In this document: one piece after another, positions 5,066 through 39,530 of the stretch
How positions within the stretch are numbered: the first letter of the stretch is position 1
Layout of the letters: each line of letters opens with the position of its first letter
Assembly: GCA_951406725.2 (NCBI GenBank)
Contig: OX597820.1
Span: forward strand, 104,780,001 to 104,844,000
Length of the DNA: 64,000 nt
Source of the DNA: Octopus vulgaris
Taxonomy: Eukaryota
Direction of reading: 5' to 3'
Notes under the pieces: generated by a model
Seen by the model: the letters and a program-made list of their open reading frames with translations, nothing else
Told to the model about the DNA's origin: nothing
Database searches by the model: none
Translations under genes and position numbers: made by a program

Positions 5066-5826
5066 TAAATATATTAATATTCACAAGCAGAATGGAATGA
5101 GCGAGTTATTTTATTACATAAAATTACAATTGCTTCATCGATATTCGATCTTAAGTGTATAACTATGCTATTGTGTATGAAATCTATTTGTTGCCGAAAC
5201 TTGTATTATCAACAATTTCTATTTAATTGAAATCAATTTTATCTATATAGATTAGTTTGTGATTATTATTGGTTTACTTCTCAGAACGTTCGGTCTTATT
5301 TGTTCTGGTAGATTCCGTGAGAGCAGACAGCAGCCTGCTGTCAGAGGTCTCCCAGGATCTCTTCCTGCATTATAAGATTTGATACTTGGTTGTTAATTAT
5401 CGTGTGAGACATTCAACATCCAAGTACCAATCTCAAAATCCTAACTGTTTCCAGCAGAGCAGTTTCGGGACTTGCTCTGCTGTCATATCGATTCCGATTT
5501 CTTTGACATATATATATATTTATATATATATATATATATATGTGCGCACGGACACAAGACGGATTTCCATACAGTTTTTCGTCAACCAAATTCACTCAGA
5601 AGGCATTGGTCAATCCGGCAGTCCAGAGCAATAGTAGAAGACACGTGCCGACGATACTGCGCAATACTTCTGGTAGTGACACAAACATCTTAACATTTAT
5701 TAAGCCTTTCTTAAGGATTTATATGAACTATTCCTTTCTCGGAATTCAAGCCGGTCGCTAACAAAGTGACAAGGCTCTTTTGTTTATGTCAAGACAGCTC
5801 TTGGAATTTTCAGCATGCGCGCGCGC

Positions 5827-7450: not shown

Positions 7451-7547
7451 TATATATATATATATAATACAATTGCAGCGTGGAAGGTGTTCGTAAGCCA
7501 TTTAAGAAACACAAAATCCGTTAGACTGACTTCAACATTTAAATTTA

Positions 7548-7600
7548 ATTTGCCAAAATATTTTCGTCGCTTTGAGACCGCGACCTGTTCACCGATAAAA
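7548..7600 (-). ncRNA. Minimal hammerhead-like motif with G3-C8 core
   Basis: ttttatcg GTGAACA g gtcgc-ggtctcaaa-gcgac GAAA atat TT tggcaaa. Confidence 0.65.
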
Positions 7601-7611
7601 ATAAAGCACGG

Positions 7612-7667
7612 AATTTTGTCAGTGAACAGATCGCGGTCTCAAAGCGACGAAAATATTTTGGCAAATT
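7612..7667 (+). ncRNA. Minimal hammerhead-like motif with G3-C8 core
   Basis: aattttgtca GTGAACA gatcgc-ggtctcaaa-gcgac GAAA atat TT tggcaaatt; stem I tttgtca/tggcaaa. Confidence 0.7.
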
Positions 7668-7801
7668 AAATTGCAATGTTGAAGTTAATCTAAAGGTTTT
7701 TGTGTGTTTCTTAAATGGCTTACAAACACCTTCTACGCTGCAATTGTTTTCGTTCCAGCACAGAATCTCAGATCAGGTCACTTGCTATGCAAGTACATCT
7801 C

Positions 7802-7893
<92 letters not shown>

Positions 7894-9684
7894 ATAGAAT
7901 AGAATTGAATTGAATTGAATTGAATTGAATTGAATTGAATTGAATTGAATTGAATTGAATTGAATTGAATTGAATTGAATTGAATTGAATTGAATTGAAT
8001 TGAATTGAATTGAATTGAATTGAATTGAATTGAATTGAATTGAATTGAATTGAATTGAATTGAATTGAATTGAATTGAATTGAATTGAATTGAATTGAAT
8101 TGAATTGAATTGAATTGAATTGAATTGAATTGAATTGAATTGAATTGAATTGAATTGAATTGAATTGAATTGAATTGAATTGAATTGAATTGAATTGAAT
8201 TGAATTGAATTGAATTGAATTGAATTGAATTGAATTGAATTGAATTGAATTGAATGAATTGAATTGAATTGAATTGAATTGAATTGAATTGAATTGAATT
8301 GAATTTGAACTTGAACTGAATTGAACTGAACTGAACTGAACTGAACTGAACTGAACTGAACTGAACTGAACTGAACTGAACTGAACTGAACTGAACTGAA
8401 CTGAACTGAACTGAACTGAACTGAACTGAACTGAACTGAACTGAACTGAACTGAACTGAACTGAACTGAACTGAACTGAACTGAACTGAACTGAACTGAA
8501 TCTGAACTGAACTGAACTGAACTGAACTGAACTGAACTGAACTGAACTGAACTGAACTGAACTGAACTGAACTGAACTCGAACTGAACTGAATTGAATGA
8601 ACGAACTGAACTGAACTGAACTGAACTGAACTGAACTGAACTGAACTGAACTGAACTGAACTGAACTGAATTGAACTGAACTGAACTGAACTGAACTGAA
8701 CTGAACTGAACTGAACTGAACTGAACTGAACTGAACTGAACTGAACTGAACTGAACTGAATTGAACTGAACTGAACTGAACTGAATTGAATTGAATTGAA
8801 TTGAATTGAATTGAATTGAATTGAATTGAATTGAATTGAATTGAATTGAATTGAATTGAATTGAATTGAATTGAATTGAATTGAATTGAATTGAATTGAA
8901 TTGAATTGAATTGAATTGAATTGAATTGAATTGAATTGAATTGAATTGAATTGAATTGAATTGAATTGAATTGAATTGAATTGAATTGAATTGAATTGAA
9001 TTGAATTGAATTGAATTGAATTGAATTGAATTGAATTGAATTGAATTGAATTGAATTGAATTGAATTGAATTGAATTGAATTGAATTGAATTGAATTGAA
9101 TTGAATTGAATTGAATTGAATTGAATTGAATTGAATTGAATTGAATTGAATTGAATTGAATTGAATTGAATTGAATTGAATTGAATTGAATTGAATTGAA
9201 TTGAATTGAATTGAATTGAATTGAATTGAATTGAATTGAATTGAATTGAATTGAATTGAATTGAATTGAATTGAATTGAATTGAATTGAATTGAATTGAA
9301 TTGAATTGAATTGAATTGAATTGAATTGAATTGAATTGAATTGAATTGAATTGAATTGAATTGAATTGAATTGAATTGAATTGAATTGAATTGAATTGAA
9401 TTGAATTGAATTGAATTGAATTGAATTGAATTGAATTGAATTGAATTGAATTGAATTGAATTGAATTGAATTGAATTGAATTGAATTGAATTGAATTGAA
9501 TTGAATTGAATTGAATTGAATTGAATTGAATTGAATTGAATTGAATTGAATTGAATTGAATTGAATTGAATTGAATTGAATTGAATTGAATTGAATTGAA
9601 TTGAATTGAATTGAATTGAATTGAATTGAATTGAATTGAATTGAATTGAATTGAATTGAATTGAATTGAATTGAATTGAATTGA
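7802..9684. repeat. (GATA)n followed by a ~1.8-kb pentamer satellite (GAATT)n-(GAACT)n-(GAATT)n
   Basis: GATA 7802-7892; GAATT ~7903-8304; GAACT ~8305-8783; GAATT ~8784-9684. Confidence 0.97.
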
Positions 9685-11620
9685 AAAATGTAACAAAAAG
9701 AAAATAGAAACTACACGTCGAAATGTAAGGGGAAAGTAGGAAGAAAAATGAGCGAAAATGCACATTGGAAATAAAAAAAGTAAAGGTTTTTATGAAAAGT
9801 AATGATACATATGTACAATTAGATGAACTGAGGTAGGAATAAAGGTAATGAAGGTCATTATTGTGAATTGTTAAAGAGATTCAAAGGCATACCGGTTTCG
9901 TAAAATTACTGATCACTGCTTTGAATGCGTACCGATTACCGAATGGTGTCGGATCTACTAGTCCCTGAGTAAAAAGATTATGTATAAGGGAGGTAAGTAA
10001 TTCTGGATTTGGTAAATATAAATTTGTAATGTGAATGGTTTATGGGATGTATGGGGGTTAATGGTATTAATTGAAAGGTTTGTAGTGTTCTGTATTAAGA
10101 TATGTGTTCATATTGAGTTGTGGAAGATATTTATTGATGAAAGTTGCCTCTTTATTCATTCTTTGTTCTGTGAACATTGATAGAGTGGAAATTTAGGAAA
10201 TTAGGATTAAGGTTTCTAGCACACCTTTCTATGTGTTCACTGACCTGTATCTGTCTGTATTGTGGGTGGCGGATTTGTTCTTTGTGGAGAGTAGTTCTTC
10301 GACGGAGTGATATTCCTGTTTGGCCAATATAATGATTACCACACCCTAATCATGTAATGGCATAGAGTAGGTTTTCGAAGCCACGGGTGAAATTTGATTT
10401 AATCTTAAATATTTCACCTTGTTTAAAGTGGAATTCTGAACCCTCCAAAAGGTGGAAGCATGTACCACAGTTAGGTCGACCACATTTTTTCAATATTTTT
10501 TTCAATGATTTCGGTTGCATTTTGCCTTTGATAATTTTATGTGAGCCTAAAATTTTATTCATTGTTTTATCTTCTGTGGGGATGGGTAGATTTTGGATGA
10601 TAATGTTGAAGGCTTCATTGTTTCTAGGGTTATGTGTGGCGATGTATGGGAGTATTTTAAAGTCTGGTGTAGTATTTCGGTTAACTTCCCTTAATGTTCG
10701 TATATCTATTTCCTTAGCTTGTTTAATGCCATCATTTATTGATGATATTGTGTAATGTCTTTTGATTAGTATAGATCTGAGTTCACGGAGTCTTCGTTCA
10801 CGAGTATAGGTGTCCGAAACTATTGTACAGATTCTTTTCGCTAGCTTATAAGGTATATTAATTTTTATGTGTTTGGGGTGGCATGAGTTGAATAATAAGT
10901 ATTATTTAGAACCTGTAGGTTTATAGAAGATGTCTGTTTCGATGTGGTTATTGACTATTTTATTTGGATGTCAAGAAAATGGAGTTATTTACTGCTGTGC
11001 TCCATGGTGAATTGTATGTTGCTGTATTGTTAAGCATTATTTTGAAATCGAGGAGTTTGTCCATACTATCTTTCCAAAGTATAAATCAATTGTCCAAATA
11101 CCTCTTCCAGTTCTCCTTTAAATAGCAATGAAATGAGGTATCGTATTTTTGTAATGATGATTGGTATATTTCAAGTTCTAGGTAACCCATTACAAGGTTC
11201 GCAATCACTGGAGCAGCTCGGTTTCGCATTGCAATTCCACAATTTTATCGATAGTAAACTATATCGAACATGAAATAGCTGTTCAGTAGGATGAATTTGA
11301 TTGCTGCAATTATGAATCTGAGTGCTGCAATTATGAAAGTGATCGCTTCTATACCATAATTGGTAATGTGTTAATAAAAAGCGTCAAGTGCTTTATTTCT
11401 ACCTTTTGTAGGACAGTATTCACTTTTGTGTTTTACTATTGAGTCATCTTCCCCGGTGTAGTTGTGAAGTGCTTCTGTGTGGCGTAATTTTCTGCAGAAA
11501 TCCAGTGTTATCCTTAATTTCATTCGGGTTCGATTTGCGAGGGTTTGGTGTAAACTTTAACCCCTTTGCTAGAATTTTAGTTTGTAAAATACTTAAAATT
11601 TTCTTTGATAAGTTGTACAT
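9685..11620 (-). mobile_element. Penelope-like retrotransposon, Neptune-type (RT + GIY-YIG), decayed
   Basis: Minus-strand motifs LAKGLKFTP; GIAM..RAAPVIANLVMGYLE; WKRYLD; TDIFYKPT..SCHPKHIKINIPY; CGRPNCGTC; HYIGQTG; many frameshifts. Confidence 0.85.
9879..9926 (-). ncRNA. Minimal hammerhead with G3-C8 core in the PLE 3' region
   Basis: attcaaagca GTGATCA gta-attt-tac GAAA ccgg TA tgcctttgaat; 10-bp stem I with one bulge. Confidence 0.75.
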
Positions 11621-11624
11621 TTTG

Positions 11625-12267: not shown

Positions 12268-12712
12268 ATGTAACATATGGTATAATTTTAATCAGGGCAA
12301 AGTTTTGCTATTTCTCCGTACACTGAAAAAAATTAGGAACAACCTTAATCGATTTTCGAACCTTATTGGGTTCTCATCAGAGGCGTCCACATCATTCTGA
12401 CGCCTCCAGAGAAACAAGCAGCCAAACTGTTTATATACTCAACATATGAAGGAGTTTCTAATTTGCATACCGAAAGTGTTTAACACTCTATAAATACCAA
12501 CGGCCTGCCAACGGGGATCCTAGTCCACACAGTACCAAGGTATGATATAATAAATATGTAACATATGGTATAATTATAAATAGGGAAAATTTTAGCCATT
12601 TCTCCGCAGACTGAAAAATGATGGACCACCTTAATCTATTTTTGAGTCATATTGGGTTCTCATCAGAGGTGTCCACATCATTCTGACAGCCTCCAGAGAA
12701 GCAAGCAGCCAA
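12268..12712 (-). mobile_element. Tandem ~286-bp hammerhead-delimited repeat (non-LTR retrozyme-like), ~1.5 units
   Basis: atgtaacatatgg at 12268 and 12556; hammerheads at 12343-12383 and 12629-12669; homolog at 58790-59200. Confidence 0.7.
12343..12383 (-). ncRNA. Minimal type I hammerhead ribozyme, intact core
   Basis: cct CTGATGA gaacc-caataa-ggttc GAAA atcgat TA agg. Confidence 0.85.
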
Positions 12713-32387: not shown

Positions 32388-32627
32388 CAAATTTATAGAA
32401 AAACAAAGATGAAGTCAGGTGTAAGAACAACAAGCAAGTGTATTAATTAGACTTGTGAGAAGAGGACAGAGCAGTGTGGATCGTCAGATCGTAAAACACG
32501 TGGCAAATCATACCCGGGCTCAAACCACAGCGGATCGATAAATGCTACAGCAGAGAACTCTTCATGTGATGAAACTACAAGTCATGAAACTGGTGCATCG
32601 GATAATACTCAGAGGAAACCGAGGGTT

Positions 32628-34085
32628 TTGTGGCCTGCTGCTAATGAGAAAGTGAAATATAAAGAGTTTGAAAACAAGGTTTGTCGGGCTCTTTATAAAA
32701 TGACAGGCTCTACAGTGGAGAAACTGGGAAAATTATCAAGCTCAATATACGATATAGGAAAAGATTTATTTGGAATAAAAGAGAATATCCGACTAGTGAA
32801 AGGAAAGTGTGGACCAAGCAAGAGGATCAGAAAAATGCAGCAGTTGAGGAAGGAAAAGTCCGACTTAAGAAAGCGATGGAGATGTGCTGCACTAGTTGAG
32901 AAACCTGGCCTTGCGTTACTGTATAAAGATTTGAAGAGGAAATGTCGTTATGTGCAACGACATATCCGCCGATATGAGCGTCGAAAAGAAAGTAAAAGGA
33001 CTCGGGGGCAGTTTCTGAAGGACCCGTACGGGTTTACTAAGAAGCTGTTCACTGAACCGAAGAGTGGTACTTTATCGTGCACTAAAGAAGAATTGGATGC
33101 TCATATCAAGGAAACCTACAGCGATCCGCACCGTAACCAGGCGCTGCCACCTCTACATGGGTTAAATCATCTCTCAGGACCTGATATCGAATTCCAGATT
33201 GGGGACATCAGGGAGAGAGAGGTGAATGACTTCGTAAGAAAAGCTAGAGCAAAGAGTGCCCCAGGAGGTCATGGCGTCTCATATAAAGGCTACAAGTACT
33301 GCAATCGTCTGCGAAAGAAGCTCTTCGTCCTTATCCGACAACTGTGGCGCGAGGAGACTATAGTAGAGGATTGGTGTAAGGCAGAAGGTATATACCTGCC
33401 GAAAGAGGCCAATGCAAAGACCATAAAACAGTTTAGGCCGATATCCTTATTGAATGTGGAAGGCAAGATCTTTATGGAAATTCTGTCGAGGAGAACAGTG
33501 GCATATTTACAGAGTAACGGATATGTTGATGAATCTGTTCAAAAGGCCGGAATCCCCGGGATCCCTGGATGCGTTGAACACTGTTTTTCGATTTGGAAAG
33601 CTATCCAGGATGCCAAACAGAACAAGAAAAGTCTGAACGTGGTATGGCTCGACCGAGCTAACGCGTATGGTTCAGTGCCACACAAATTACTAATAACAGC
33701 CATGGACCACTTCCACATTCCTGACAAAGTGATCAAAATAATGAGGATGTACTATGACAGTTTCGAAATGAGGTTTACAACTGAAAATTTTACAACAAAT
33801 TGGTACCGATTGGAGGTTGGCATTGCTGCTGGCTGTACAATATCTGCCACGTGGTTTATCTTAGTCATGGAGTTGATTTTGAAAGGTGTAGTATTTTCGG
33901 AACAAATCGCCCATGTACAATCGCCTAAGAAAGCCTTCATGGATGACGTGACACTTCTAGCTACAGATAAACAAATCATGCAGAATGCCCTTTTGAGATT
34001 AGACGAACTTGTAAGGTGGTCAAGGATGCGATTTAGAGCAAAAAAGTCGCGTAGTCTGACATTTGTTAAGGGAGTGCAGAAATAA
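32628..34085 (+). pseudogene. Reverse transcriptase domain of the HERO-like element
   Basis: KSAPG; FRPISLLNVEGK; WLDRANAYGSVPH; GIAAGCTIS; AFMDD; premature stop at 34083-34085. Confidence 0.9.
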
Positions 34086-34145
34086 TTTTAATTTCGAATA
34101 TCTGAAGAAAGCATTCTAACAGTCAAGGAAGAGTCCGTCAAGAGC

Positions 34146-35525
34146 TTGGGACGAGTATACGCTGGAACATTGTCAGACAGAAGTCGTGGGATTGAAATTA
34201 TGAAACAGGCCGAGACTGGGTTATCAGCGATTGATGTTTCGAAGTTACCAGGTAAATATAAAATTTGGTGCTTGCAGTTCGGCTTGTACCCGCGACTTGC
34301 GTGGCCACTTTTAATATACGAAGTAGCATTGTCACGAGTTGAAAAGATTGAACAAAAATGTAATGTGTTCATTAGAAAGTGGCTAGGTCTACCTCGTATG
34401 TTGAACAGCTCAGCTCTTTATCGTAAAAGAGGTTCGTTACAGTTACCAATAGCATCAATAGTCGAAATATATAAGTTGGGGAAGATACGGACGGTCATGA
34501 TGTCTTCTCTTATACACAGAGATATGGTGGGAGCAACGCAGAACCATCGGAAAGGATTTGGTTTTGGCGCAGATCAGTTCAGACCGTTTGCAAGCATGAT
34601 GCCGTGTGAACGCAGATCTGTTGTTAGCAACAGCGTCAAAACAAGAGAAGCAGAGAGAAGAGAGCTTCATTTGATCCGATGTGTTCATCAAGGTCAGATG
34701 ACGAGATGGGAAGAACATGTTGTTGAGGGGAAGATAAGTTGGGATGAGATGTGGAAGTGGACGACATCTCGGCTGAGTTTCCTGATTCGTTCATCTTATG
34801 ATGTTTTGCCATCACCTACGAATCTAGTAAGATGGAACGTCTTAGAGAATGACATCTGCAAATGTGGAAAGGTCGGTACACTAAAACATATTCTTTCCAA
34901 CTGTTCATTAGCATTGAACAGGTACACATGGAGGCACAACTTGGTCCTTAAGGTTATCTTCAATGCTATAAAGAACCAAATTCATCTCAACAACACTGAG
35001 GAAAAATCGTTAAAAGTACCATCAAGAGAGTTCATTACCTTCGTGCGACCAGGTCAGCAGATCCATTTCAAGAAGAAGACCAAGAAACTTCCTGAGAAAA
35101 ATGAAAAGTGGAACGGCTATTGGGAGGTAACTGCAGATTTACCTGGGTGCCAGGTTTTCTTTCCCATCCCAGTTTCGAAAAAACCAGATATTTTGATGTG
35201 GTGTGAAAGAAAGAAAGTTGTAAATATAGTCGAGCTAACGGTTCCTCACGAAGATAATATGGACGCCGCTCGAGCTCGAAAATTAAACCGTTATGAAAAC
35301 CTCCTCGAGGAATGTGAAGACGCAGGCTGGAAAGCGGAACATTTTCCTATCGAAGTCAGATGTAGAGGGTTTGTAGGACACAGCGTGAGACGACTGTTGT
35401 TATCGTTAGGCCTAACTCATCGTAAAGTCAATACCACCATCACTGATATCCAATCTACAGTGGAGAAGGCTAGCCACTGGATTTGGTTAAAAAGAGACGA
35501 TGAGCGATGGCTAGAAGTATATTGA
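34146..35525 (+). pseudogene. Thumb, zinc knuckle and RLE endonuclease of the HERO-like element
   Basis: CKCG..GTLKHILSNC; RYTWRHN; KPDIL..IVELTVPHE; K..RY; PIEVRCRGF. Confidence 0.9.
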
Positions 35526-39109: not shown

Positions 39110-39360
39110 TAGAATATAGCAACAGCTTTTTGAATATATTATGTGTGTAAGTATGTGCGTGAGTGTACATATATTAAGTTGAGGGAAAAGTTCGTACACA
39201 GTGTAAAAATGAACACACACACCACAAAAATATATTAAAAACCATTATTTTTACACGGCGCACGAACTTTTTTCTCAACCTAATATACATATATAGTCGT
39301 TTAGATCACTTGCGAACTAAATAGCCATATTTTGCGTATGTATATATATATATATATATT

Positions 39361-39530
39361 ACGGAGATGTACTTACATAGCAAGTGACCTGATCTGAGAT
39401 CGTGTGCTGGACCGAAAACAATTGTAGCGTAAGCCATTTAAAGACACACAAAAACCGTGAGATTTACTTCAACTTTTAAATTTAAGTTGCCAAATATTTT
39501 CGTCATTTTGAGAGCGCGACCTGCTCACTT
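39361..39530 (-). mobile_element. PLE end of the 7465 family with G3-C8 hammerhead remnant
   Basis: GTGAGCA g gtcgcgctctcaaaatgac GAAA atat TT ggcaa at 39487-39530. Confidence 0.65.

Follow-up and report, generated by a model that had tools for sequence, protein, structure and literature searches.

A palindrome in the Octopus vulgaris genome (assembly GCA_951406725.2) consists of two pseudo-long terminal repeat (pLTR) ends of a young Penelope-like retroelement (PLE) that encodes a reverse transcriptase (RT) and a GIY-YIG endonuclease. It lies near the start of the window, the 64,000-nt stretch of contig OX597820.1 analysed here (positions 104,780,001 to 104,844,000, forward strand), and each of its arms carries a type I hammerhead motif in which the C3-G8 pair of the literal CUGAnGA core is replaced by G3-C8. 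The reading judged probable is that the exchanged pair is likely under selection and that the motif would cleave slowly, as a dimer or with the help of the element's protein, in the transcript of the parent element and not in the palindrome. The evidence that carries this reading is the exchange of whole pairs at positions 3 and 8 between two sister families and across a second lineage of such elements.

The palindrome and its parent element

The right arm (7605..7801, plus strand) is a pLTR end with the long 3' end and its tail, followed by microsatellite, and matches a natural copy of the family at 93% over 197 nt (blastn). Its minimal type I motif (7615..7665) opens with the 5' strand of stem I (7615-7621, 7 bp) and continues with the core GTGAACA (7622-7628), which reads G3-U4-G5-A6-A7-C8-A9, an extra G (7629), stem II (7629-7648, where this copy has G>A at 7630), GAAA (7649-7652), ATAT (7653-7656), U16.1 (7657), U17 (7658) and the 3' strand of stem I (7659-7665). 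The motif includes a palindromic AATATT, the predicted cut falls between 7658 and 7659, and stems I and II both form when the motif is folded in isolation. Remnant first codons of the PLE open reading frame (ORF) occupy 7715..7801, with the ATG 56 nt past the predicted cut, and the unit passes unbroken into the N-terminus of the ORF at three other loci (L362, L363 and L369), again with the ATG at that distance.

The left arm (7466..7600, minus strand) is an inverted copy, slightly 5'-truncated and with a short 3' end (blastn 90% over 137 nt). Its motif (7599-7549) is identical to that of the right arm in the core, stem II and GAAA-ATAT-TT, and the exchange of positions 3 and 8 that the original prediction had described can be read directly in both arms. 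The same prediction had placed tttgtca before both cores, which is wrong for the left arm, where the 5' strand of stem I is TTTATCG; the two substitutions leave one mismatch in a weakened stem I. A diverged copy had also been proposed at 39.5 kb, and a decayed copy with a GTGAGCA core is indeed found there (39359..39529, minus strand), but it is not a working motif: it is cut off one base before the core, so that stem I lacks its 5' strand and cannot form, stem II is damaged and one nucleotide is deleted at the cut site. These three copies are the only exact matches to a short pattern searched in the window; with two mismatches allowed the pattern has 8 matches, which by itself is not above chance (mean 5.9).

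Both arms belong to a repeat unit some 205 nt in length. The core pattern of the family, in which positions 3, 7 and 8 are free, has 6,272 exact matches in the genome and none for a reversed control, although these matches stem from few source elements and their number reflects amplification and is no evidence of selection. Among the first 100 matches listed, 94 have G3-C8 and six have a single mismatch. Position 7 was expected to vary freely between A and G; it is A in 98 of the same 100 matches and in all 101 aligned copies, and the G is private to the decayed third copy, so that variation at position 7 carries no weight as evidence within this family. Position 17 is U in 116 of 119. Ends were mapped in 99 copies from 98 loci, chosen by their 3' end alone (2 of 100 listed places were left out as likely duplicates). 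An adjacent inverted partner accompanies 52 of the 99, and 34 start at reference positions 1-2. Two 3' ends lie about 57 nt apart, the partner ending near position 148 (cluster 145-155) and the long end at 206; end duplications of about 8-15 nt flank several solo copies and many copies end in (TA)n (TA targets). Directly upstream of the unit, in L212-L241, the hard 5' end of the family is preceded by a word resembling a branch point, a run of pyrimidines and a CAG or TAG, and this end may be a splice acceptor or else a start site with a cap-derived G. Sequencing runs with six different organism codes contain the unit, which makes it probable that related species have the family in common; no RNA run is among the runs listed as containing it, which says nothing on its expression. 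Coding constraint on the core was considered and rejected, since the long stop-free frame that spans older copies is closed in young ones and the true ATG lies downstream.

The unit was also considered as a stand-alone non-autonomous element, the first locus sets having no shared flank, but it was later traced to an autonomous PLE. A loose end in the RNA reads exposed an upstream extension of the unit (526 exact copies) that leads to the parent ORF. This ORF, open over 1025 aa in L284, has RT motifs together with a CxxC linker and a GIY-YIG domain (PF01541, above cut-off). Pfam RVT_1 gave no match to the parent protein, though the RT motifs are in frame. The hammerhead motif lies 932-1116 nt downstream of the ORF in 29 of the 30 best RT-endonuclease (RT-EN) matches, and a pLTR-ORF-pLTR arrangement is preserved in L387, with units at 5222-5425 and 9483-9682 on one strand, the motif at both ends and an inverted truncated copy in front of the element. 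That the palindrome belongs to a family of PLE ends, as had been proposed, is thus borne out. The features of an endonuclease-bearing (EN+) PLE are found together: an ORF with RT and C-terminal GIY-YIG, direct terminal repeats, a partner that is inverted and 5'-truncated, and a tail confined to one end. The closest named homologue of the parent protein is Octopus-labelled, and a metagenome scan found no relative of it. Short units also occur as a same-strand array in L389 (3616-4954), where about eight of them stand head-to-tail with a period of 170-190 nt; the array resembles a non-LTR retrozyme array derived from the end of the focal PLE.

Covariation at positions 3 and 8

The exchange is seen most directly between the focal family and a sister family whose protein is 54.7% identical to the focal protein over 815 aa. 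At the homologous place the sister family has the core CTGATGC, and thus C3-G8, at 43/43 sites and 30/30 loci. The layout common to the two motifs comprises the extra G, stem II, GAAA, TT and TG, and stem II itself differs by a compensatory change on both sides (GTCAC/GTGAC in the sister family vs GTCGC/GCGAC in the focal one). The sister family is very young, with copies that are 99% identical and open frames of 1312 aa. Its motif, as seen in the 3' repeat of L397 and in L392-L421, has C at position 9 and a GAAC loop that is not palindromic. The direction of the swap is unrooted here; to take C3-G8 as ancestral would be to rely on that pair being the one found in general.

A second PLE lineage, with a CCGG loop, is represented in the window by another G3-C8 motif (9879..9926, minus strand; core GTGATCA at 9916-9910) with a UA cut site. 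A broken PLE ORF with RT, thumb, CxxC linker and GIY-YIG (10081..11623, minus strand) ends about 165 nt before it; this fragment was considered as the parent of the focal family and was set aside because it belongs to the other lineage. The proteins of the CCGG-loop lineage are 24-27% identical to the focal protein over short stretches only, and as regards a shared origin of the two G3-C8 motifs by capture, they have a 12-nt identity (E 0.31) and nothing beyond it. Relatives of the motif at 9916 have A3-U8 or U3-A8 at the aligned place. With positions 3 and 8 free, the lineage pattern matches 4,398 genome sites against 6 for the control, and the first 30 unselected loci comprise 18 U-A, 10 A-U, one G-C and one A-A, so that 29 of 30 are paired. 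Among 21 distinct layouts 20 are paired, whereas shuffling gives a mean of 9.6 and none of 20,000 shuffles reaches 20 (14 for an N3-N7 control); the layouts are related, which inflates the contrast, and the shuffle result is not to be read as a probability. G3-C8 occurs at 115 sites of this lineage genome-wide, C8 accompanying 115 of the 158 G3 sites, while C3-G8 is found in only 4 of the 4,398. The 75 sites with G or C at position 3 and a base other than C at position 8 were tallied by hand as G-U 25, G-A 11, G-G 7, C-A 14, C-U 14 and C-G 4.

A protein tree was built from 32 of 140 loci, those with an ORF match over 150 aa plus a recognisable motif, one of which (L119) is probably mis-paired with the motif of a neighbour. 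One clade with support has U-A, the outgroup has A-U, and a further clade mixes A-U with G-C. Of the 32 rows 29 are paired, and the G-C state needs one to three changes. The motifs listed in L111-L140 are almost all U3-A8 or A3-U8 and often have a stem II of only 2 bp; the two arms of one palindrome (L121 and L122) differ by a double change from U-A to A-U. C17 is found in none of 30 G3-C8 sites of the CCGG set, which fits the report that G3-C8 works worse with C17 (PMC3884650, as data not shown there), albeit in two lineages only.

Taking G-C in the focal family, C-G in its sister and U-A and A-U in the CCGG-loop lineage together, all four Watson-Crick pairs occur at positions 3 and 8 in PLE-type motifs of one genome, and the alignments suggest that the 3-8 pair is likely kept by selection. 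The proposal of a natural compensatory variant fixed in a retroelement family is supported by both comparisons, the C3-G8 of the sister family and the covariation across the second lineage. A rival account is that the motif is a dead relic or a chance look-alike, two unlinked substitutions having become fixed by drift and having been carried along in the amplification of a successful element. It draws on the descent of the 6,272 matches from few source elements and on the Rfam scans, which gave no hammerhead model among the 150 of 226 matches listed in one and none among the 146 matches of another. However, double changes that keep the pair recur, both as the C-G/G-C swap between sisters and as U-A, A-U and G-C in the CCGG-loop lineage, unpaired states are rare and mostly have the appearance of scattered single-copy mutants, and stems I and II have compensatory changes of their own. 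The relic account is very improbable, and the covariation already refutes most of it.

Fold, cleavage and alternative roles

In a young solo copy stems I and II are predicted with a probability of at least 0.9, except for one end pair at 0.7, and they stand in type I order around the core. Although the literal CUGAnGA core is not matched (GUGAACA), the family has a Watson-Crick pair between positions 3 and 8, U4, G5, A6 and A9, G12, A13 and A14, the A15.1-U16.1 pair and a base other than G at position 17. The focal motif is derived from a hammerhead and is likely to work like one. The two motifs of the window locus, itself read as a by-product, sit on opposite strands. A read-through RNA of the palindrome is predicted to form one long hairpin, about 120 bp in length and with a folding energy of -192 kcal/mol, where the probability of the hammerhead stems is 0, so that the motif in the palindrome is probably inactive and would not be the working form.

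By analogy with the PLE of the anole, transcription would start in or near the pLTR, and reverse transcription would begin within the first ORF codons, at two internal sites, and copy back through the motif. Such internal starts would yield thousands of short ends as well as head-to-head palindromes. Cleavage after the UU would need a stem III, which has one base pair in the monomer and might instead form between two motifs on the same strand through the self-complementary AATATT; tandem copies such as those of L387 and L389 could supply the second motif. Alternatively, the protein of the element may assist, as it does in the anole element.

Several results weigh against cleavage of this kind. 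The intermolecular AATATT helix is worth only -0.2 kcal/mol, compared with -8.3 for ACCGGT, a stronger duplex of 10 bp buries A13 and A14, and G3 can form a wobble pair with U17. UUU would also be a poor cleavage triplet. No covariation at positions 3 and 8 is seen inside the focal family, in which G-C is found in 89 of 98 copies and the others have a mismatch or a gap, and A9C has become fixed in the very young and successful sister family, which implies that non-canonical core letters can become fixed in the focal lineage as well. In three RNA-seq runs, of each of which about 6% of the reads were looked at, read ends do not pile up anywhere on the unit although both strands are covered; the libraries are fragmented and mostly hold host read-through, so this is a weak test. 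The 5' ends of insertions are not clustered at the cut either, with 3 at positions 57-61 (up to 5 by eye) against 2.2 expected; the 12 at positions 50-61 against 5.3 expected are confounded by palindromic microhomology and by a range picked afterwards. Furthermore, metazoan minimal hammerheads are reported to cleave poorly (PMC4209133), and in the anole PLE the ribozyme is described as dispensable for insertion in vitro, catalytic mutants being without effect, and RNA-seq as free of cleaved ends (PMC11167929).

Many of these points are also what would be expected if the hammerhead fold and its 3-8 pair were kept for a role other than cutting, as a protein handle or in the control of translation or reverse transcription upstream of the ATG, with negligible cleavage. 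The weak stem III and the G3-U17 wobble, the fixed A9C, the lack of cleavage ends among RNA reads and insertion ends, the anole mutants and the 2-bp stem II in much of the CCGG-loop lineage all agree with it, and it is a serious rival, albeit an unlikely one. It has to account for the assignment of the 3-8 pair to the active conformation (PMC3884650), and for U4, G5, A6, GAAA, U16.1 and a base other than G at position 17 being kept across families with unrelated stems. The search pattern partly imposes these letters, but the alignment anchored on the ORF does not. Slow cleavage in the parent transcript is preferred as the reading of the focal motif.

The bases themselves might also have been selected for splicing, G3 as the G of a YAG splice acceptor (poly-U followed by CAG) and C8 as its repair, with splicing removing the 5' half of the ribozyme. 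In the focal family, and at 27 of the 30 G3-C8 sites examined in the CCGG-loop lineage, G3 is indeed the last base of a CAG or TAG, and introns of PLEs are known to end at stem I (PMC4209133). Nevertheless, a start at the base that follows G3 is seen in only 1 of 99 copies, the RNA-read joints listed include none of this kind (27 further joints are unlisted), and some 22 nt farther upstream, at the hard 5' end of the family, there is an acceptor-like signal. Selection for splicing is scarcely credible as the origin of the exchange.

Published hammerheads and other features of the window

One close published counterpart is engineered. In the anole PLE (PAc) hammerhead, either mutation alone, C3G or G8C, is reported to abolish activity and the C3G/G8C double mutant to regain part of it, the element's own protein aids cleavage by the ribozyme and reverse transcription has two internal start sites (Frangieh et al. 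2024, PMC11167929). The octopus family has the same bases, a motif beside the start of the ORF and, as proposed here, two internal start sites giving the tail; the anole swap was made in the laboratory, whereas G3-C8 is the natural state of a young octopus family with more than 6,000 motif copies. In the available parts of PMC11167929, PMC8495972 and PMC3884650, G3-C8 appears as an engineered mutant only.

PLE hammerheads are typically marked by an additional base ahead of stem II, by G10.1-C11.1 and by a stem III that is palindromic (Cervera and de la Pena 2014, PMC4209133). The octopus motifs share with these minimal hammerhead ribozymes of metazoan PLEs their presence in both pLTRs, the extra base between A9 and stem II, G10.1-C11.1, the short palindromic stem III and copies that are mostly solo or on opposite strands. 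They differ in their G3-C8 core, the same paper reporting U3-A8 in Schistosoma; among the 56 motifs of its Fig. S3, in the portion accessible, 53 have CUGA, three UUGA and none G3 or A3. U3-A8 is likewise the only natural variant at these positions named in the accessible text of Perreault et al. (2011, PMC3088659), to which the octopus adds G-C and A-U, fixed in whole families of elements. Neither G3-C8 nor A3-U8 is named as a natural state in the available parts of PMC6765202, PMC6155905, PMC10085705, PMC7151607 and bioRxiv 2026.07.22.740005, and searches of the open-access literature listed no paper that reports either, which does not establish absence from print.

The octopus element resembles the EN+ PLEs of clades Neptune and Nematis (Craig et al. 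2021, PMC8557442) in its order RT-CxxC-GIY-YIG, in having an inverted truncated partner and a tail at one end, and in its (TA)n targets; this likeness is one of layout and CxxC linker and not of an RT tree with named references. Its tail is about 57 nt long compared with 30-40 nt for known PLEs in that paper, which also describes canonical hammerheads as universal in PLEs with a C-terminal endonuclease, whereas the CCGG-loop set has C3-G8 at hardly any site.

It is possible, and is put forward tentatively as something a little short of probable, that whole PLE lineages of this genome depend on active hammerheads whose cores are non-canonical and which between them use each of the four Watson-Crick pairs at positions 3 and 8, G3-C8 being found in two lineages that are deeply separated. 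Double substitutions that preserve the pair, when they recur, are the type of evidence that shows selection on an active fold, and if true this would be natural proof of selection on a tertiary pair of the active state in PLEs. The chemistry is known already, the swap being tolerated in engineered RNAs and U3-A8 being natural. PLE hammerheads cleave poorly and were dispensable in the one in vitro system. If the proposal holds, a large part of the eukaryotic hammerheads would have escaped searches based on CUGAnGA, perhaps including some in clades described as lacking them. As standard patterns and Rfam models missed the motifs described here, counts of animal hammerheads may be too low. Meanwhile, C-G, G-C, U-A and A-U on native stems form a natural series that is ready for kinetics.

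A third family is represented in the window by a canonical C3-G8 minimal hammerhead motif (CTGATGA; 12342..12384, minus strand), which has a palindromic loop, ATCGAT. In RNA reads over L002:1478-1712, A>G is seen at 18-19 places and T>C at 8-15, compared with 2 and 0 in DNA contigs; the excess may be that expected from double-stranded-RNA editing of palindromes, although the runs carry different organism codes and it is not proof. About 1.9 kb of GATA and AATTG-type microsatellite (7802-9700) directly follows the right arm, and two long frames of 544 and 477 aa at 32451-35525 on the plus strand resemble, by eye, a non-LTR retrotransposon RT with a C-terminal zinc-finger/nuclease region.
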